A DNA stretch of 64,000 nucleotides from Escherichia phage a48: sequence record OQ067375.1; one strand, written 5' to 3'. Made by a program: the position numbers and the translations under genes. Under the pieces are notes generated by a model. The model was not told the DNA's origin and ran no database searches. It saw only the letters and a list, made by a program, of their open reading frames with translations. Of the stretch, positions 3,995-45,731 are shown one piece after another. Every line of letters starts with the position of its first letter. Position 1 is the stretch's first letter.

Positions 3995-6691
3995 TCAGCC
4001 AAACAGGAAGTCTAACGAAGCTTTTTCTTCATAGTCCATACCAGCCGATTCACACATGCCCGCAAGCGGTTTAACAAACGATTTTTGGAACAAAGTTGAG
4101 TAGTCAATCCAAGATAGTACATCAGAACGAATTTCTTTTGGAAGTTCTGTGCCCGACGGCCAAGCAATGCACTTGTCACCAAATGGATTTCCTTCACGTA
4201 ATGGAAGAACCATTACCTTATTTCCATCCAAAATTGGAGCTACACCTAAACCACTAACAGCTCGACGATAAGTTAGCACACCACGGATATGGAACGGGCA
4301 TTTAAATCCTGGCCAACCTTTATCATCATATTTCGCTATATCGTTCGCAGTTTTTACTTCAGCAATAACTTTATAGTCAAGTTGACGATATTCTTTCTCG
4401 AAGTTCTTGTAATATTCTTGGACAGACTCTTCACCTTCCTGAAGAATACGACGAATACTTTCTTCAAGAGCTTCTTGTACTGCTTTTGGTGTTGAACTCT
4501 GCTGAGTTTCCATACCCATGATTTTTAGATGCGGTTCAGCAAATCGCTTATCTTCCATATCATAAACGTTCAGAGCATAACGTTTTTTCGCTTTCCAAAA
4601 TCCACCAACACCCTTTGAACCAAGTGGAGGACAAGAAATAGCTTCACGGTCCATATGCATCAGATGCTCGCGGTTATTCATATAATCACATAACTCACGA
4701 TATGCAACATCAATCATAGGTTCCATCTTTTTCTTACCGAACTGATTCATGAATTCAACTAAATCGTTCTGCTCTTTGAATCGGTCAAGACCAACTTTTT
4801 CAATAACTTTATCTACACAAACATATACCGAATCAGTATCACCTGCTGCGATGAAATCTTCACCATTAGTTCCGCATACTTTATTCAGATATTCATTAAT
4901 TTTACGAGCAATCCACTGAATACCAACTTGGCCGAAAATTGTGATAGCAGTAGCATTTCGCAAATCATAGTAACGGAAATGAATATTACCAAGAGCGCCA
5001 TAAAGACTGTTAATGAGAATTTTACGGTTCAGCTGATTTGTATTAGCAAGTGTAGCAGCTTTTTCACATTCTTCAATCAGACTATTGAGAACAGATTCAG
5101 TATAATTCGATAGTTCATTTAAGAAATCATCACTGAACTTAACATATCGTTCAACTTCTGGTTTAGTTGAACAAGACCCTGCGCCTTTCATAATAATCTT
5201 TTTAATAGCTTCGGCATTCATTTCTTCAGCGAACATTTTCTTTTTCCAGTCTTTACGCTGGAAAAATACTTTAGCGATTTCCTTTGGAATGATACCTTCT
5301 TGATGCTTATCATACATCCATCCATTCGGAGAACAAGAATATTCTTCACTTGGCTTAGGAGCTGTTCCTGCGATATATTCATGAATTGGATGAACTTTAA
5401 ATTGCCCACGAATAGTCTCAGGACTAATGTTAACCTGACGAATAATGCTCGGATACAGAGACGTCAAGTCAAAACTCATAATATATCGACGAGCAATTGG
5501 TTTAGGTTCAAATACAAATGCACCCGGAAAACTTTGTTTAACGTGCGAACCTTGTTGAGGAATAACCTTGTGTTCACCTTTCAATGAGTTAAAAATAATA
5601 GCATCCCAAGTTTTAATAGGACTCATTACACCAGAAAAAGGCATTTTGGCGTAATAAGACATACTTAAAACTAGATCGATAAACCCACGAATTTTATCAA
5701 TTGCTTGAACTGATTCTACGTCAATGATGTTATAACTAATGTATCGTTGATGATTAGTCTCACGAAGTTTATTAATAGGACCGTCGTATGGTAATTTACC
5801 TTTTTTGGTTTCATGTTGAGCAACTGATTCCAAAGAGAATGACGGCAAATTAGTAAATGCGAATTTCTTATACAAATCTAAATAATCAAGAATAGATACG
5901 CCATCAATAGAATAAATTTCTTTGCTACCGTACATATTTTGGATAAGTTTAGATTTTACTCGACCGATTGGAGAGAAACGTTTCATACTGCGTTCACCGA
6001 GAACCATTTTAACGCGATTCATGATATACGGAACGTCAAATCCCTCAATATTCCAACCAGTAAAAATAGCAGGTCGTTTCTGTTCCCAAAGATTGATATA
6101 TTCCATGAGCATATCGCGCTCATTATCGAATGGCATATAAATTACTCGGTCAAGAATTTCTTGAGGAACTTCATCACCACCTTCACAGTCAAGCTTAGCA
6201 GCTAACTTTGCATCCCATTTTGATACTGAACCGTACATTGAATTCAAAAGGTCGAAAACATAAAAACGATCATCAATTGAATCGTAATGAGTGATAGCAT
6301 CAATTTCATATTCAGCTTTCATTGGGTCAGGAAATTTATCACCAGTAACCTCAATGTCACAGTTAGCTACACGAACAAATTTTCGGTCATAAACAATTTC
6401 TGAACCATATGTATCACTGATATAAGCGAGTTTAAAATCGTTCATACCGAGAGCTTCGAGACCGATGTCTTCCATTCGTTTCATCCAATCTCGAGCATCT
6501 TTCATTGATAGAAATTTTTGAGGAGCGCAGTTTTTACCATAGATGTCTTTGTACTTTGACTCTTCCTTACAATGCCTAAACATAGTTGGAAGATATTCTA
6601 CTTCACGAGTACGTTCCTTTCCGTTTTCATCAATATAACGTTCAACAATGTTATTTCCGACTGTTTCAATAGAGATATAAAATTCTTTCAT
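3995..6691 (-). CDS. 43: DNA polymerase (family B) with 3'-5' exonuclease
   Basis: 898-aa ORF, same length as T4 gp43; polymerase motifs SLYPSII and YGDTDS present. Confidence 0.97.
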   Translation of the reverse strand: MKEFYISIETVGNNIVERYIDENGKERTREVEYLPTMFRHCKEESKYKDIYGKNCAPQKFLSMKDARDWMKRMEDIGLEALGMNDFKLAYISDTYGSEIVYDRKFVRVANCDIEVTGDKFPDPMKAEYEIDAITHYDSIDDRFYVFDLLNSMYGSVSKWDAKLAAKLDCEGGDEVPQEILDRVIYMPFDNERDMLMEYINLWEQKRPAIFTGWNIEGFDVPYIMNRVKMVLGERSMKRFSPIGRVKSKLIQNMYGSKEIYSIDGVSILDYLDLYKKFAFTNLPSFSLESVAQHETKKGKLPYDGPINKLRETNHQRYISYNIIDVESVQAIDKIRGFIDLVLSMSYYAKMPFSGVMSPIKTWDAIIFNSLKGEHKVIPQQGSHVKQSFPGAFVFEPKPIARRYIMSFDLTSLYPSIIRQVNISPETIRGQFKVHPIHEYIAGTAPKPSEEYSCSPNGWMYDKHQEGIIPKEIAKVFFQRKDWKKKMFAEEMNAEAIKKIIMKGAGSCSTKPEVERYVKFSDDFLNELSNYTESVLNSLIEECEKAATLANTNQLNRKILINSLYGALGNIHFRYYDLRNATAITIFGQVGIQWIARKINEYLNKVCGTNGEDFIAAGDTDSVYVCVDKVIEKVGLDRFKEQNDLVEFMNQFGKKKMEPMIDVAYRELCDYMNNREHLMHMDREAISCPPLGSKGVGGFWKAKKRYALNVYDMEDKRFAEPHLKIMGMETQQSSTPKAVQEALEESIRRILQEGEESVQEYYKNFEKEYRQLDYKVIAEVKTANDIAKYDDKGWPGFKCPFHIRGVLTYRRAVSGLGVAPILDGNKVMVLPLREGNPFGDKCIAWPSGTELPKEIRSDVLSWIDYSTLFQKSFVKPLAGMCESAGMDYEEKASLDFLFG

Positions 6692-22751: not shown

Positions 22752-22967
22752 TTACCCCAATTTAACCATACAATCGCCGTATTTCCACTTAGAAATAGAC
22801 TTTTCACCATTAGAATAATAAACTTCGAGTTTAGCACGATTATTTTTAATTTGAATAACCTTGGCTGTCATCAAAGTTCCATACCCATAATAAACTGCAA
22901 CTTCATCACCTACATATACCGCGCTTCCGCGGTAATCATGAATATAGTCAGTTCCTTCGAGCATCAT
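22752..22967 (-). CDS. hypothetical protein
   Basis: 71-aa ORF directly downstream of nrdC. Confidence 0.45.
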   Translation of the reverse strand: MMLEGTDYIHDYRGSAVYVGDEVAVYYGYGTLMTAKVIQIKNNRAKLEVYYSNGEKSISKWKYGDCMVKLG

Positions 22968-23227
22968 TTAAAATATTCTCGCAGTTGGTCAAATCCACCA
23001 ATATGACTTCCATCAGGAGCAAATACCTGGGGCATTGTCAAGCCGATTTGAGTATCACGACCTAGTTTAGTCAGAAGCTCAGCGATTTTCTCATCATCAA
23101 AAACACCTTTTTCCGGCATAATGTTGATAAATTCAAACGGCTGTTTCTTCACGGTCAAAAGACGTTTTGCATTATCGCAATACACACATTTATGAATGTT
23201 GCTATCATAACCATATACTTTAAACAT
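22964..23227 (-). CDS. nrdC: thioredoxin/glutaredoxin NrdC
   Basis: 87-aa ORF MFKVYGYDSNIHKCVYCDNAKRLL with CVYC active site, matches T4 NrdC. Confidence 0.88.
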   Translation of the reverse strand: MFKVYGYDSNIHKCVYCDNAKRLLTVKKQPFEFINIMPEKGVFDDEKIAELLTKLGRDTQIGLTMPQVFAPDGSHIGGFDQLREYFK

Positions 23228-23228
23228 A

Positions 23229-23471
23229 TTATTCCTTAATTCCTAGTACTTGTTTAAAAGTCTCGTCGTAATCAAGACTTTGGCCCGTTTGTTCTTTATG
23301 TTTGTATATAATATCACTTACTTCTGATAGCATATTTTTATATGAACGAGTTAAAGCAGATTTAAGCACGCTGTATCTATCAGGAAATTTACCATGTTCA
23401 TTATAATAAGCTATTGCTAATTCACGGACTGCCTTTTCAGCAGCCTCCATATATTCTTTACGCTTGGTCAT
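23229..23471 (-). CDS. hypothetical protein
   Basis: 80 aa from internal start [15 protein letters not shown]; ORF track gives a longer version overlapping the upstream gene. Confidence 0.35.
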
Positions 23472-23772
23472 TTTCTTCTCGGTCAAATCGGTGTTTACAA
23501 TGACGACATTTATAACGAAGATTACTAGTCTGCCAATGGACCAATTGCACCTGTTCAGTTCCACATTCAGGGCAATTAGGAACGTTTTTAGAAGCCCTTT
23601 CACGACGTTCAACCATGACCATTACAGAATCCCAATTAACAGGAGGGCTATAATCATCACAACCATGAATCTTTCCACGCATTTCCAGATCGTCTTCTTC
23701 ACCAGCCATAATAATTTTAATTACACTAGAATTACTTGAAGCTGCAATGTCTTCTAATAGACGATTTTTCAT
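23458..23772 (-). CDS. zinc-ribbon protein
   Basis: 104-aa ORF with CPECG...CRHCKH four-cysteine motif. Confidence 0.5.
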
Positions 23773-24695
23773 TTCAATACCTCAATAGCATTGCGTAAAC
23801 CATTTGCTTTGGCGGTTAAAGCCTTAAGAACTTTAGTATGCTCTTCAATTTGTTTTTCAACTTCAATCAAACGAGCATTGAGATATTCGCGTTCTTCTTT
23901 CATAGTATCATTCCCATGATTGGATTTTGGTGTAGGTTTAAATTCACTAGGGTCCTTTAATTTAATAACAAATTTAGTTTCAAACAGCGAAAGACCATAA
24001 TTCGTATTATCATCAAAGGATTTGACTACATCCATATCAGATAATAACACGCGTAAATTATAAGCCAAAGAACTAATAGTTTCATTGTGTTTATTAGCTT
24101 CGCGTGGTTTCATATACGGAAGATTTTTATATATCTCGTGCGGAGCACAAATGATAATTGACAATTCAAATTGCCCATTCTGGGACGATGGAGTGAATTT
24201 AGCCGTAACCCAGTCTTTTACATTCACATTAATAGTACGGTTATCACCATGACAAAACAGTCTACGAGAATGCTTAAAAAGCATATTCACGTTATTATTG
24301 AATTCGTGTGAAAATTCACTAGCAAATTTTTCTTTACTATCTTTAGAAAACCATTCTTCTAAATAAGTTCTTTTCACGTCGTTAATAATATTAAATGTAA
24401 CAACACTAGCATTTGATACATTAGTCTCAATGTAGCTTGGATACATAAATTTTTTAACATTATTAACAGCTATCACAGAAGATAGTAATCGGGAACGTTT
24501 GAACCACTCGAGCAAAGAACCAAGAGAATGTGAATACGCATTTTGTGTATCTTTACAAATATGGTTTTCCCATCCAATATAGTCTAAAAAATCACGAAGA
24601 ATATTATTGATTACTGCTCTGTGTCCTATCTGATAATTACGATGTTTAGTAATAAGACTGTCAAAATAATCAATATAATGTTTACGAGTTTTCAT
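23769..24695 (-). CDS. hypothetical protein with C-terminal coiled coil (tandem family member 1)
   Basis: 308-aa ORF MKTRKHYIDYF... ending in a ~40-aa heptad-rich helix. Confidence 0.6.
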   Translation of the reverse strand: MKTRKHYIDYFDSLITKHRNYQIGHRAVINNILRDFLDYIGWENHICKDTQNAYSHSLGSLLEWFKRSRLLSSVIAVNNVKKFMYPSYIETNVSNASVVTFNIINDVKRTYLEEWFSKDSKEKFASEFSHEFNNNVNMLFKHSRRLFCHGDNRTINVNVKDWVTAKFTPSSQNGQFELSIIICAPHEIYKNLPYMKPREANKHNETISSLAYNLRVLLSDMDVVKSFDDNTNYGLSLFETKFVIKLKDPSEFKPTPKSNHGNDTMKEEREYLNARLIEVEKQIEEHTKVLKALTAKANGLRNAIEVLK

Positions 24696-24747
24696 GTTCT
24701 TCTCACTTGGTTAATGATTTATACTCCGAGCCATCCTTGGCTTTAAA

Positions 24748-25745
24748 TTACTTAATTAACTGTAAAGCTTGTTCCAGACGATCAAGACGATTAACAGATT
24801 CTTCCCAAATCCTTTTAGCCTGCTCATATTCTTTCTGCGCTTTATTAGAAATTTCTAGAACTTCTTTATAAGCTTTTTCTAGTGCAATAACTTCTGGACG
24901 AATTTCTATCGGTTCAGGTGAATCATCAAGACATTCCATTAGTTCCTCAAGGGTAGTTTCTTCTTTAGGAGTATTCACAATTTCATCACATTTTTGTTGG
25001 TAAATTTCTTTATCAGTAGGTGAATAAGCACATTTCACTTCACGAAGGCTAATTACGAGTTTATATCCTTCCCAACCGCATATATTCTTAAAAGGATATG
25101 TATGAATATTTTCTACTGTTTCCATACAAAGTAATGCGGTCTCTAATTGACGAGTTATAGTGCTAGCAATTGAGAAAAATTTATTAATATTCTTTTGGTT
25201 AGTTTCTGGTGTAAAAAATCTGTAATTAATAAAAATAGCTACTTTGTTTTTATCAAGCTCATATTCTTCTGCTATAATCATATCATCAGCTAAGGGATGA
25301 ATTGTACGATAATCACCATAACATAATTTAGAAGCTGATTTTAGAATTTGCTTCGTAAAACTCCTAAATTCACTAACCCAACGACGAGTAAAAATATTCT
25401 CAGGGTCTTCTTTAGTATTAAGATGATAAGTATTAACATCACCGAACCAATTGTATCCTACTACATCTTTAGTTCGTTTAATTTCTTTCCCAAATTTACC
25501 AAGAATATCTTGATTAACTAAATATGAAAGAAGACGAGACCCTTTAAAGGTTTTCTTAATATCATCTTTATCCGTGCGGCTAGAAATTTCATGAGCTTCA
25601 TGAATAAATTTACTGGAAGAAACAATACTTACATCAATATTATTGAGCCATTGATAATAGAAATAACATCGTTCTGACTAGACACAGGTTTAACTTTATC
25701 ATCAATAACGCTATTGAATGATTTGATATATTCGTTACGAGTCAT
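24748..25745 (-). pseudogene. frameshift-interrupted gene with C-terminal coiled coil (tandem family member 2)
   Basis: ATG at 25745 with GAGGAG ribosome-binding site reads 35 codons to a stop at 25629-25631; a different frame is open from 25677 with no Met and runs into the 177-aa ORF 24748..25281. Confidence 0.5.
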
Positions 25746-25773
25746 AATAATCTCCTCAGTAGAAAGTAAGAAC

Positions 25774-25803
25774 ATTATACCACATCCTTGTGGCAAAGTA
25801 AAC
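25774..25803 (-). promoter_or_regulatory. T4-type early promoter
   Basis: Minus sense GTTTAC ... TGgTATAAT upstream of the frameshifted gene start at 25745. Confidence 0.5.
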
Positions 25804-26816
25804 TAGTTCAGTGCATTGTTCAGTTTAGAACGTTGCTTTATCAGATTTTGAACCCTTGACTGAGCTTGTTCTAACGCCTTTTCAGCTTCTAGCACTTCAT
25901 TGGTCGCTTTAACGAGTTCATCATCTACTGCCTTAAGAGACTTCTCAATCGCGTCAGCGTGCCATTTTTCAACAGGTTTAAGACTCGGATTTTCAATAGG
26001 AAGAAAATTCACTTTATTGAATTTCCATGCATCTTTATTACCTGAACTATACATCCAAAATTTAGGATCGTTTGATGAGTAATTAGATGAATTTAAGGTA
26101 TCTTGCACTTCTTGCTTTTTCTCTTGCGGGACTTCGTCCTTTCTCAAAAAATCGTATTTAAATGAAACGATCATATCAAGTTCATATGTTGTTGTATGTT
26201 CCCAATTTCGCTCAAAACGAGGTAAAATCTTAGATTGAACAGCAGCAACAACATCCATATACTTAAATGCTTCTGTCAACTGTGATTTAAGGCATTCGCA
26301 AATTGAAAGAGAATTTTTTGTATTAGGTTTAAAGCTAATTCGTGCAGTTCTATTATTTTCTTTTAACGGTCTTACTTCCATCTGAAGAGTATAACCATCA
26401 AATTTCAGATTCTTTAAGTTAATATCAGAGCCTTTTAATCGACTAGCAGTAGACAAAATTTGCTTTAATTGTTTACGGAACAGAGCAATAAATCTCCATT
26501 CAAGACGATAATGATTTGGATTAAAAAATCCAGTTGATAGATCAGTCTTACTTTGACCAACGCCTCGAACAAATAGAGGATTTTTATAATCAATAGTTTT
26601 ACAGAAATCGGTGAGCTGCTCGCGAGCAGTCATTTGTGTAATATACCCTGCTTTACTAAAATTACGCACCCATTCACTGCTATTCGTATACTTAAAGTGA
26701 TGAATAACACGATTAACTTTATCAGGGTCTAAATTATTTTCACACAAAAATGTCATAACATCACGAGTATAACTGGCATTACGAACCATATCTTCAATTT
26801 GAGAACGAGTTTTCAT
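25803..26816 (-). CDS. hypothetical protein with C-terminal coiled coil (tandem family member 3)
   Basis: 337-aa ORF MKTRSQIEDMVRN... with coiled-coil tail. Confidence 0.6.
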   Translation of the reverse strand: MKTRSQIEDMVRNASYTRDVMTFLCENNLDPDKVNRVIHHFKYTNSSEWVRNFSKAGYITQMTAREQLTDFCKTIDYKNPLFVRGVGQSKTDLSTGFFNPNHYRLEWRFIALFRKQLKQILSTASRLKGSDINLKNLKFDGYTLQMEVRPLKENNRTARISFKPNTKNSLSICECLKSQLTEAFKYMDVVAAVQSKILPRFERNWEHTTTYELDMIVSFKYDFLRKDEVPQEKKQEVQDTLNSSNYSSNDPKFWMYSSGNKDAWKFNKVNFLPIENPSLKPVEKWHADAIEKSLKAVDDELVKATNEVLEAEKALEQAQSRVQNLIKQRSKLNNALN

Positions 26817-26824
26817 GGTGTTCC

Positions 26825-27733
26825 TTAAGATTTAAGTAAATCAACAATTTTAATTAATTTTTCACGTTCAGATTTAGCTTTACTACTCAATCCAGATAGT
26901 CTGAAAATTTCATCGTCATATTGTTGAATAGAAATATTCAGCTCTTCAATTTGCTTATTAAAATAATCAATTTGTTCAGAATGTTTTTCGTTACTACGAA
27001 CTGGTGCAGGTTTTGTAGGCAATTTAGTTGAACTGGATTCATCCGGGCGATAAATTAAAATACAATTTGAACCAATAGGGCATTTTGCACCAGACACATA
27101 TTCTAATGTTCCGGCTTCTTTTAAAACTTCAAAAGCTAAACAGAGATGATGACCCATATTGGCATAATCTGTAGAGTGAGCTCTGATATAATAATCATCT
27201 CCACGAGTACTAAATTTAAAACATTTAAGGTCTTCTGTATTATTGGTCTTAAAAATCATTTGTTTATCTAGACCTTTAGCTAATCGAGCACCTAATGCTA
27301 ATAATCGTCGTTGATTTTCCCACAAATCTGCGATCATTTGGTCAAATGATAATTTCGGCATTAGTCGACCATAAAGGTCATATCCTTTATTATAATTGCG
27401 AAGAATTTCACTCGCGTTAATGCGAGACAACGCTCCAATTTTATTAAGGGCTTTCATGATGCGATTAGATAAAAGCATTCCAGACCCGTTTGTTCGTTGT
27501 AAATGTTTTTCTAATCCAAATCCAATATCAACTTTAAACTTATCTAAAATTTCGGCGTGAACATCTTTATCGATAACATTTAAATTTAGTACTGGGTTAA
27601 ATTTATGAAAAAATTTATCTGACTCGTCGCGTTGAAGTACAGTCCATTCATTTGATTTTTTATTAACTAAAGATTTAATTACTGCATTGACATTATTAAT
27701 TGCTACTGACATATTTTCCTCACTCAATTTCAA
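26825..27733 (-). CDS. hypothetical protein with C-terminal coiled coil (tandem family member 4)
   Basis: 302-aa ORF with coiled-coil tail. Confidence 0.6.
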   Translation of the reverse strand: MKLSEENMSVAINNVNAVIKSLVNKKSNEWTVLQRDESDKFFHKFNPVLNLNVIDKDVHAEILDKFKVDIGFGLEKHLQRTNGSGMLLSNRIMKALNKIGALSRINASEILRNYNKGYDLYGRLMPKLSFDQMIADLWENQRRLLALGARLAKGLDKQMIFKTNNTEDLKCFKFSTRGDDYYIRAHSTDYANMGHHLCLAFEVLKEAGTLEYVSGAKCPIGSNCILIYRPDESSSTKLPTKPAPVRSNEKHSEQIDYFNKQIEELNISIQQYDDEIFRLSGLSSKAKSEREKLIKIVDLLKS

Positions 27734-28127
27734 TTTTACTAAATATACAGAATAAGATAGAACAGACTATATAAGCACCACACACAGATTGAACTAATAC
27801 CATTCCAAAGAACCAAACAATATTATCAAACAGTGTCTGTTTTACGTCGAAAGGACGTAAACTTACAGTAATATTATCACCTTTTTCTATTGAAGAATAC
27901 ATCTCTGGGGAAATATATTCACTAAATCTATAACCGTCTTTGAGTTCATATACGGCAATAAACGATAAACTAGACCCCTTTCCTTGTGTTCCTGTAATAG
28001 TATTAACTACAGTAACATCATAATCTTTATAATGCATATAATCATTAATTGCGTAATAACCATATGCAACTACTACACATAAACAACATATCAATAAATT
28101 CAATCTTTTAATTATCAACTGTTTCAT
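27720..28127 (-). CDS. membrane protein
   Basis: 135-aa ORF with N- and C-terminal hydrophobic helices. Confidence 0.5.
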   Translation of the reverse strand: MKQLIIKRLNLLICCLCVVVAYGYYAINDYMHYKDYDVTVVNTITGTQGKGSSLSFIAVYELKDGYRFSEYISPEMYSSIEKGDNITVSLRPFDVKQTLFDNIVWFFGMVLVQSVCGAYIVCSILFCIFSKIEIE

Positions 28128-28182
28128 AATAATCTCAGTTAAAAGGGCTTAGAACCATTATACCATCCTTGGTATAAAGCGG

Positions 28183-28710
28183 TTATGCGAGTACCGTCTT
28201 TAACCGTTCTTCAAACTTCCGAAGAGTATTCTGGCGTTCAGCTCTTTGCTTTTTGTAAGTTTCAATACGCTCTGAAATGAGAGTGTATCGTTCATTTACT
28301 GATTCTTTCATAAAATCAGGAATTTCACGAGAAGCTTTAATCTCATCAAATTTATCAATAACAGCTTGCTCTTCAGCAATTAAGTTATCATACATTAAAA
28401 TATCTTTCTTGATAAACTCAATATCTTCTTGAGTTACACGAGATAATTTAGATGCTTTATCCTTTTTGTACTGTTCGTTAGTATCACGAGACCAGTGTAA
28501 TGTACGATTTTTATTCGTATTCTTGTAAATTTCTACAATACCGATCTCATCGATAATAACGATCCAATTCCAACGGGATTTGTAAATTTGTCCTCCGTCA
28601 ACTGTGATTTCACCTCCGATTGAGATGTCATTAAAGAACTTACTTTGTGCTTCAGATTTAAATTTACCATCGTTGTAATTTACCAAGTTGAAAATATCTT
28701 TAGCGTTCAT
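28183..28710 (-). CDS. hypothetical protein with C-terminal helical tail
   Basis: 175-aa ORF downstream of an early promoter-leader cassette. Confidence 0.55.
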   Translation of the reverse strand: MNAKDIFNLVNYNDGKFKSEAQSKFFNDISIGGEITVDGGQIYKSRWNWIVIIDEIGIVEIYKNTNKNRTLHWSRDTNEQYKKDKASKLSRVTQEDIEFIKKDILMYDNLIAEEQAVIDKFDEIKASREIPDFMKESVNERYTLISERIETYKKQRAERQNTLRKFEERLKTVLA

Positions 28711-28735
28711 TTTCTGTTCCTCCGTAGTTGATAGT

Positions 28736-28768
28736 TGTATAGTACCACAGAGGAACAGTCTTGTAAAC
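28736..28768 (-). promoter_or_regulatory. T4-type early promoter (repeated cassette)
   Basis: Same gtatagtaccacagaggaacagtcttgtaaac block as at 3847; drives ORF 28183..28710. Confidence 0.55.
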
Positions 28769-28770
28769 CA

Positions 28771-29076
28771 CTAAAAGAAACTTCTTTCACAATTTTTTCC
28801 ACTGAACCAAGCACTTACCACTTTCTTAGTCTCAGGAGCAGTGTTATCCATAAACCATTCAAAGGCAGCCTTTTTATGATTCTGGAGGGCTTCTCGGGCT
28901 TTAATCTGCTCACGGTCTATTAACACTAACATATGAGCCTTTCTTGTCACCATGGGCTTCTTATGATTTTTTGAATACTCCCAATCATTTGTCCATCGCA
29001 TTGTTGTTGCGAACTGAAATACTGCTTCTTTAATCTTAGTTTCGTAAATTTCACGAGCCTTTGAGTATAACATCAC
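28771..29076 (-). CDS. hypothetical protein
   Basis: 101-aa ORF. Confidence 0.45.
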   Translation of the reverse strand: MMLYSKAREIYETKIKEAVFQFATTMRWTNDWEYSKNHKKPMVTRKAHMLVLIDREQIKAREALQNHKKAAFEWFMDNTAPETKKVVSAWFSGKNCERSFF

Positions 29077-40115: not shown

Positions 40116-40589
40116 TTATTTGAATGATTTGACGTACTGAATAGAGCCTTTGCTATTCACGAAAGCGATTTTACCATTTTTATTATACATGGTAGCAGTA
40201 CGCTGATAACCATAAGTTTGTTTACCAGATTGATAACCAACTAATGCAAAATTATCTTCGCCCATTTTATTCTGTTTGGCGCGGATACGTTCATGACCGT
40301 GTGCCATAAGAACCTTAGCGTCGCCAGTTGCAATGGATCTACGAGTTTTTTCATCTTCAACCGTATTAACAAAGTCGTCAAATGAATCAAATTTAGCATG
40401 AGATTTATTATACAGTTTTCCATCTACTGCATAATTATATCCCTGTACATCCATCTCAACTTCTGTACCATCATCCAATACAGCAGTGATTTTTTGACCT
40501 TTTTTAAATTTCAAAAGATCAGTAAAAGATTCAGCGATAATTTGAGAATTAATAGCTGCTTCAGTAATAAATTCTTGATATGTTTTCAT
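40116..40589 (-). CDS. internal-protein-like protein with capsid targeting sequence
   Basis: 157-aa ORF starting MKTYQEFITEA (T4 internal-protein targeting signal with protease site after TE); late promoter motif upstream. Confidence 0.6.
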   Translation of the reverse strand: MKTYQEFITEAAINSQIIAESFTDLLKFKKGQKITAVLDDGTEVEMDVQGYNYAVDGKLYNKSHAKFDSFDDFVNTVEDEKTRRSIATGDAKVLMAHGHERIRAKQNKMGEDNFALVGYQSGKQTYGYQRTATMYNKNGKIAFVNSKGSIQYVKSFK

Positions 40590-45269: not shown

Positions 45270-45731
45270 TTATTTGATTTGTTTAGCAGACCAAATGCGG
45301 TCTTTAATAATTTTTTGGATGTCTTCAACATACTCTAGGTCATGAGCATGTGGATTATCTTTAAAACTATAAGCTCGCGCAAGTTTCTGGCCTTCGGTCT
45401 TAATTACCAAAAGTTCTTTAAGAATTGCTTCATACCTAGAGATAATTCCTTTAGCAATATTTTTTTCTTGTGCTGCTTTAGGGTCAGCCTTAGGAGCAGG
45501 TTTACCAGAAGGTTTTTCGAAAGCCGCACCAGTAGCAACTAGGCTTTTCCAGGCGGTAGTAACATAGTTACCCACAAAGCCTTCAGCTCTCATATCGTCG
45601 TAGAACTTGTACCGAGATTCGTCAGAAGCATCTTTATAAGAATATTTACCAGCTTTAATAGCAGCAGTTGCTACAGCGCGAACATCTGAAGCGGATGCTT
45701 CGGTCATTAAAAATTGAGCATAAGTTTTCAT
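45270..45731 (-). CDS. internal-protein-like protein with capsid targeting sequence
   Basis: 153-aa ORF starting MKTYAQFLMTEA, lysine/alanine-rich; followed by tandem hairpins. Confidence 0.55.
   Translation of the reverse strand: MKTYAQFLMTEASASDVRAVATAAIKAGKYSYKDASDESRYKFYDDMRAEGFVGNYVTTAWKSLVATGAAFEKPSGKPAPKADPKAAQEKNIAKGIISRYEAILKELLVIKTEGQKLARAYSFKDNPHAHDLEYVEDIQKIIKDRIWSAKQIK

Follow-up and report, generated by a model that had tools for sequence, protein, structure and literature searches.

The stretch of DNA analysed here, referred to as the window, comprises 64,000 nucleotides of Escherichia phage a48 (sequence record OQ067375.1). It carries four consecutive minus-strand genes that an initial annotation, made from the sequence alone, had described as a tandem array with divergent N-terminal domains and a shared C-terminal coiled-coil tail. 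The source is a T4-like phage (Tequatrovirus), and the T4 and RB32 annotations identify the four genes as the orthologs of T4 nrdC.3, nrdC.4, nrdC.5 and nrdC.6. They have the same position and order as in T4, between nrdC.2 and nrdC.7, with per-gene amino acid (aa) identities to T4 of 90-95%. In each product, a head of ~240-280 aa is joined by a disordered, proline-rich linker to a heptad tail of 45-57 aa:

23769..24695, minus strand: nrdC.3 ortholog, 308 aa, intact; head ~23961-24695, linker ~23907-23960 (KDPSEFKPTPKSNHGND), heptad tail 23772-23906 (45 aa)
24748..25745, minus strand: nrdC.4 ortholog, frameshifted; stub 25632-25745; C-terminal open reading frame (ORF) 24748-25281; linker ~24898-24975, tail 24751-24897 (49 aa)
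25803..26816, minus strand: nrdC.5 ortholog, 337 aa, intact; tail 25806-25976 (57 aa)
26825..27712, minus strand: nrdC.6 ortholog, 295 aa from ATG; head ~27035-27712, linker ~26996-27034, two-helix heptad tail 26828-26995

The ORFs that the initial annotation had listed at 23769-24695, 25803-26816, 26825-27733 and 28183-28710 were all found. One start was revised: the ORF at 26825-27733 encodes 302 aa from an upstream TTG at 27733, whereas T4-like records begin the gene at the ATG at 27712 (295 aa). The region 23400-28800 of the window is colinear, over 5.4 kb, with RB32/RB33 (95.6% nucleotide identity) and T4 (94.6%). Window NrdC.3 is 100% identical to NrdC.3 of RB33/RB32 at the aa level and 92% identical to that of T4; for NrdC.5 the identity to T4 is 94.7%. 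At least 80% of the block is present in 464 of 622 phage records, at 90-95% nucleotide identity. The block had been called hypervariable, a term that does not suit its gene content within the genus.

The statement that no member could be assigned to a characterized family is outdated, since the genes are T4 nrdC.3-6, fall into existing Pfam families (PF26897 for NrdC.3 and NrdC.4, PF23882 for NrdC.5, PF26899 for NrdC.6; PHROGs 1435, 2351 and 2257) and include one, nrdC.5, with a published function. DUF7235 (PF23882) matched residues 1-337 of window NrdC.5 with 420 bits (gathering cut-off 30; E=8.3e-126). End-to-end matches to phrog_1435 were obtained with NrdC.3 (E=2e-101) and with the T4 version of NrdC.4 (E=6e-168), and PF26897 (Phage_T4_Y04OP) is precomputed on all NrdC.4 homologs; both PHROGs and Pfam thus already place NrdC.3 and NrdC.4 together. 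NrdC.6 was matched over its full length by phrog_2257 (E=1.4e-149), with PF26899 (Phage_T4_Y05B) on 105 of 105 homologs. In Pfam and PHROGs these are three separate families of unknown function, which we join here as one superfamily.

The heads had been described as looking different in each protein, but they are homologous: the proteins NrdC.3, NrdC.4 and NrdC.5 align over nearly their full length, and NrdC.6 is linked to them along two independent lines, bridging homologs and predicted structure. Between paralogs, BLASTP similarity was weak but colinear (NrdC.4 and T4 NrdC.3: 25% over 269 residues). Profile comparison with hhalign gave a probability of 98.3-98.6% for NrdC.3 and NrdC.4 over ~212 head columns, and 92.7% for the combined NrdC.3+4 profile and NrdC.5 over 252 columns, extending into the tail. 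As bridging set we used distant single-copy relatives from Enterobacter phage IME523 (IME523_335), Klebsiella phage EI (EI_315) and a metagenome (P0238, matched most closely among phages by those of Klebsiella). The resulting profile matched NrdC.6 at 89.7% (E=1.8e-6), NrdC.4 at 96.2%, NrdC.3 at 86.7% and NrdC.5 at 96.8%; the IME523 protein by itself matched NrdC.6 at 91.7%. Two core motifs, FK.SRLLS...L..F and ILK.A.(K/R)L..G.D, are common to NrdC.3+4+5 and NrdC.6.

AlphaFold2 (AF2) monomer models of NrdC.6 (predicted local distance difference test [pLDDT] 78, predicted template modelling score [pTM] 0.66) and of P0002, a 93%-identical NrdC.4 homolog (pLDDT 83, pTM 0.68), agree in how their core elements are ordered: H-H-beta-H-H-h-E-E-H-E-E-linker-helix. 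In Foldseek searches of BFVD, both models retrieved the same uncharacterized T4-like phage proteins of 300-370 aa; the NrdC.4 model matched NrdC.6 of phage JS10 (E=7e-5, probability 1.0), and the Foldseek matches were reciprocal. Direct profile comparison of NrdC.6 with the other members gave a probability of at most 20%. From the profile alignments, the bridging homologs and the predicted structures we conclude that nrdC.3-6 are almost certainly ancient tandem paralogs, homologous over their full length, and not unrelated heads on a common tail.

Heads that are dissimilar by eye and weak BLASTP similarity between paralogs would also fit a history of domain shuffling, in which unrelated heads were grafted repeatedly onto one constant docking helix. 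The same can be said of an 803-bp metagenomic contig that carries an NrdC.5 tail behind an unrelated 120-aa head. However, the colinear full-length profile alignments, the bridging homologs, the same secondary-structure order and the reciprocal Foldseek matches show homologous heads, the tails are not constant, and the chimeric contig is short and a single sighting. We consider domain shuffling very improbable.

The four linker motifs reported in the initial annotation (KPTPK, PEPIEIRPE, KPVEK and KPAPV) are all present. In the AF2 models, pLDDT drops below 50 at NrdC.4 residues 261-287 and NrdC.6 residues 227-241, where the linkers fall. The tails are detached from the head in these models; that of NrdC.4 forms one helix of 48 residues, and that of NrdC.6 forms two (residues 245-271 and 277-294). 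A first, crude heptad scorer under-called the NrdC.4 tail, whose core contains Ala, Tyr and Ser; a register test with shuffles was used instead. By this test each tail has a single unbroken heptad register of 45-57 residues with 75-88% hydrophobic a/d positions (P<=0.0005; 2000 shuffles). Together with the modelled helices, this confirms the C-terminal heptad-rich helix noticed at the outset.

Aligned without gaps from the C-terminus, the tails fit each other above shuffles (z 2.4-5.0 between T4-type paralogs); they share the end motif [KR]L..A[LI]..L[KN] and the same heptad phase relative to the C-terminus. Paralog tails are nevertheless identical at just 6-11 of 42 residues, which contradicts the idea of a constant tail. 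Between paralogs, the tail is a shared design (length, register and end motif) that has diverged as much as the heads. Among the orthologs of nrdC.3, nrdC.4 and nrdC.6 (three of the four groups), conservation is clearly higher in the tail than in the head:

NrdC.4 and homolog P0064: head identity 29%, tail identity 76%
NrdC.6 and its RB69 counterpart: head identity 29%, tail identity 59%
NrdC.3 and its RB9 counterpart: head identity 57%, tail identity 82%

The number of copies beside nrdC varies among T4-like phages: Kanagawavirus and Marfavirus have one and Tequatrovirus has four, while Mosigvirus, JS10 (Dhakavirus) and phage NC-G have three, always ordered Y05B, DUF7235, Y04OP. A single ancestral gene beside nrdC in T4-like phages (Tevenvirinae and Marfavirus) would have given rise to the tandem paralogs, and the four-copy state of Tequatrovirus probably arose by the duplication that yielded nrdC.3 and nrdC.4. 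A promoter-like site was read from the sequence between nrdC.5 and nrdC.4:

25774..25802, minus strand: promoter-like site, GTTTACT...TGGTATAAT

It resembles the T4 early-promoter consensus. A second, related promoter-like sequence lies between nrdC.4 and nrdC.3 (~24720-24745). Related sequences upstream of both genes are consistent with duplication of the whole gene unit; in a promoter consensus scan of the window, the total count was not above chance.

Frameshifts and deletions often change the locus, as do hybrid genes and exchanges of head alleles. NrdC.3 exists in two allele classes; in the one common in Tequatrovirus, a T4-type N-terminus and the shared tail flank a head that is Mosigvirus-like. 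In phage ACG-C40 (NC_019399, 5802-6213), a natural deletion has taken nrdC.4 entirely and nrdC.5 and nrdC.3 for the most part, sparing nrdC.6; a 71-aa ORF for the NrdC.5 N-terminus is left, directly adjoining the sequence that encodes the NrdC.3 tail. A homolog of 299 aa encoded on a 167-kb contig (P0121) is a hybrid of NrdC.5 (146-272) and RB9-type NrdC.3 (134-308), joined at a short 'VN' motif common to both. In Shigella phage Sf25 the NrdC.6 homolog (P0122, 378 aa) contains an internal tandem duplication of residues 177-259 (83 residues). In the RB69 reference (NC_004928), 'nrdC.5' (300 aa) has a frameshift at the head/tail linker (~5800-5997), and the +1 frame encodes a normal heptad tail (...KLFNAMNALKS); the gene is intact in other Mosigviruses, where it encodes 319 aa.

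The window itself carries such a change. The initial annotation had marked 24748-25745 as frameshifted, and DNA alignment with T4, RB32 and RB9 confirmed this: window nrdC.4 is without one copy of a tandem ATCA at ~25652-25655, near codon 33 (run ATTATCAATCAATGG). The 4-nt deletion splits the gene into an N-terminal stub of 38 codons and a C-terminal ORF encoding 177 aa; after repair of the frame, the protein is 89.8% identical to T4 NrdC.4. A search for the deletion allele in IMG/VR contigs returned two unrelated chance matches only. No other contig with the allele was found there, and a sequencing error is therefore possible; the deletion may be either a real allele or such an error.

Shortened NrdC.4 fragments occur in other Tequatroviruses, namely the BFVD entries A0A2Z5WKJ2 (phage T2, 155 aa) and A0A482N302 (phage G8, 158 aa) and the homologs P0037-P0039. 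It seems that nrdC.4 has been lost or broken repeatedly.

The ratio of non-synonymous to synonymous substitution rates (dN/dS) of nrdC.3-6 was 0.12-0.40 in comparisons with T4, RB32 and RB9 (except for the near-identical NrdC.3-RB32 pair), whereas that of nrdC, nrdC.8, nrdC.9 and nrdC.10 was 0.03-0.10. The four are thus real genes under purifying selection that evolve faster than their neighbours. They are also dispensable, because the window has the frameshift, ACG-C40 the deletion and P0121 the hybrid gene. Both properties speak against a housekeeping accessory of nucleotide metabolism, a role that the neighbourhood of nrdC, nrdD and nrdG might suggest; the block adjoins nrdC, and many GenBank records say 'thioredoxin'. 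These labels on nrdC.1 to nrdC.9-type genes are apparently annotation carry-over from nrdC, as no thioredoxin or other enzyme domain was detected in NrdC.3-6. The distribution of the family is also narrow for a housekeeping function: a profile search of 1.84 billion cluster representatives returned only 16 at E<=1e-3, and those traced to their source were from T4-like phages, the only phages in which these searches found the superfamily. A housekeeping role is accordingly the least probable of the explanations considered.

For one of the genes, the published function points to counter-defence. Srikant, Guegler and Laub (eLife 2022; PMC9391042) describe an evolved T4 clone with deletions that does not grow on ECOR17 and grows again once host dsr1 is removed; plasmid-borne dsr1 protects MG1655, and nrdC.5 expressed in trans from a plasmid restores infection by the T4 deletion clone on a Dsr1 host. 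A literature search for a mechanism or a new name of the anti-Dsr1 gene found nothing beyond this 2022 paper. The window gene at 25803-26816 is the ortholog of T4 nrdC.5 (DUF7235), and its product probably has anti-Dsr1 activity, given the 94.7% identity. The other three window genes are paralogs with the same head-linker-tail layout. At ~15-25% identity between T4 NrdC.5 and its paralogs, the same target is unlikely, and the anti-Dsr1 test covers NrdC.5 only. An anti-defence role for NrdC.3, NrdC.4 and NrdC.6 is plausible, with about even chances. The initial annotation had suggested host-factor binders or decoys; the diversifying tandem family with a head-linker-helix layout stands, and the counter-defence activity of T4 NrdC.5 against Dsr1 (PMC9391042) fits the idea.

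None of the four proteins was meaningfully matched by an enzyme family, a solved relative or an NCBIfam or PADLOC model. Across the paralogs, no catalytic-type residues are conserved and the invariant columns are mostly hydrophobic; binding proteins therefore fit better than enzymes. We propose that each protein is a non-enzymatic binder in which a fast-evolving alpha/beta head is connected flexibly, through the proline-rich linker, to an amphipathic heptad helix at the C-terminus. Each head would bind directly to a different host immune protein and block it. The heptad tail is a probable oligomerization element, and multimerization might add avidity or match an oligomeric target. The best explanation of the whole, to which we assign a probability of roughly 0.6, is that the genes encode dispensable early counter-defence binders, paralogous to each other, with an oligomerizing tail.

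The nearest mechanistic analogue for NrdC.5 acting against Dsr1 is DSAD1 of phage SPbeta, an anti-DSR2 phage protein that neutralizes a SIR2-type defence protein depleting nicotinamide adenine dinucleotide (NAD+). DSAD1 blocks DSR2 by binding directly in the sensor pocket, which the tail tube protein also uses (PMC10973363). Comparison by sequence and by fold gave no sign of homology between the four proteins and the DSAD1 family. One rival reading, a structural-protein decoy, would be a parallel case: the head would imitate a tail terminator or tail completion protein and fill a host sensor that otherwise detects late virion proteins, much as DSAD1 sits in the tail-tube pocket of DSR2. Similarity to the tail terminator/completion fold (lambda gpU, T5 p142, SPP1 gp17-like) reached a grey-zone score with no sequence similarity. 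The NrdC family would add to that fold an N-terminal helical portion, a linker and a heptad tail; its members are also early accessory genes and not virion genes. We regard the decoy as improbable.

The tails permit another arrangement, namely that the Y05B-, DUF7235- and Y04OP-type paralogs join through them in a hetero-oligomeric complex, a single multi-headed particle with a joint function. The trio gene order kept in Mosigvirus, JS10 (Dhakavirus) and phage NC-G would agree with this, as would the likeness of all tails in length and register to the C-terminus and the conservation of each tail type within its ortholog group, nrdC.5 excepted. The window, too, retains one gene per type even without a working nrdC.4. 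However, ACG-C40 retains nrdC.6 only, Kanagawavirus and Marfavirus have a single copy, and plasmid-borne nrdC.5 alone rescued the T4 deletion clone, whose retained neighbours are not stated in the text consulted (PMC9391042). Such a complex is unlikely, although it is the strongest of the alternatives. A combination of these ideas, which we rate as somewhat less likely still, is that the register-matched tails assemble the paralogs into a hetero-oligomeric anti-defence hub, whose heads block different sensors (Dsr1 in the case of NrdC.5) and perhaps have a fold derived from a tail terminator as a decoy. If this were true, the trio conserved across T4-like genera would be a single immune-evasion machine and not three independent genes.

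Several observations weigh against a family of independent paralogous binders with oligomerizing tails. In the searchable literature, functional data exist for one of the four proteins, NrdC.5, and they are genetic. The order of the trio, kept across genera, could mean one joint function instead of three targets. Heptad periodicity neither proves a coiled coil nor gives an oligomeric state, and the tail could dock another protein. In the nrdC.5 ortholog group, head and tail are similarly conserved. With dN/dS below 1, positive selection is not directly indicated. For NrdC.6, the direct profile comparison with NrdC.3+4+5 reached 20.5% and covered core motifs only; its link to the others rests on intermediates and models, with model TM-scores of 0.37-0.49 that are lowered by the flexible tail.

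The T4 ORFs have long been annotated and the nrdC.5 function is published; new here are the superfamily link and the pattern of head and tail conservation. T4 is the reference phage, and most of its genes between nrdC and mobD are without an assigned function. The link to the anti-Dsr1 gene nrdC.5 makes nrdC.3, nrdC.4 and nrdC.6 concrete counter-defence candidates. As a design rule we propose that the fast-changing head serves target choice and the conserved tail assembly; this would explain why allele swaps, hybrids, frameshifts and deletions keep reshaping the locus.

Several sequences near or resembling the block were considered separately. The thioredoxin gene nrdC lies at 22964-23227, and nrdC.7, a small membrane-protein gene, sits between nrdC.6 and nrdC.8:

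28183-28710: nrdC.8, 175 aa, the gene after nrdC.6 and nrdC.7

The initial annotation had noted that this gene ends in a similar helix. It is not a fifth member: nrdC.8 is unrelated both by profile (probability <3%) and by tail, which is out of register (z<=0.5). In phages of Klebsiella and Enterobacter, the small neighbours of 144 and 257 aa are likewise unrelated.

The chimeric metagenome contig of 803 bp (ENA, k141_89665) has an ORF at 81-641 in which an unrelated head of ~120 aa precedes an exact NrdC.5 tail, followed by the nrdC.4 start. The head contains KIGDTYRP, reminiscent of GIY-YIG/T5orf172 endonucleases, and had no match among 50,697 phage genomes. This chimera, short and seen once, may be either an insertion of the endonuclease type or an artefact of assembly.

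The C-terminus of window NrdC.5 is 3 aa shorter than that of T4 (...KLNNALN compared with ...KLNNALNALN; window 25803-25815), which looks like the loss of one 9-nt repeat unit. The lengths of NrdC.5 homologs range from 334 to 342 aa.

The MKTR or MTRNEY starts noted for three of the genes are present. T4 internal proteins are targeted to the capsid by an N-terminal peptide of the MKTYQEFI(A/T)E type that ends in a gp21 site (L/I-x-E). Such a capsid targeting sequence was rejected for the block: all that MKTRKHYIDY, MTRNEYIKSF and MKTRSQIEDM have in common with MKTYQEFITEA, the start of the ORF at 40589, is MKT and ..[YF]I, no I/L-x-E site follows, and the N-terminal helix forms part of the packed fold (pLDDT 94). 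NrdC.3 (start at 24695) and NrdC.5 (26816), which begin with MKTR, are loosely like the ORF at 40589, whose MKTYQEFITE start is similar to the targeting peptide of the internal proteins, and were also compared with the ORF at 45731; MKT starts are common, occurring in 6 of 138 ORFs.

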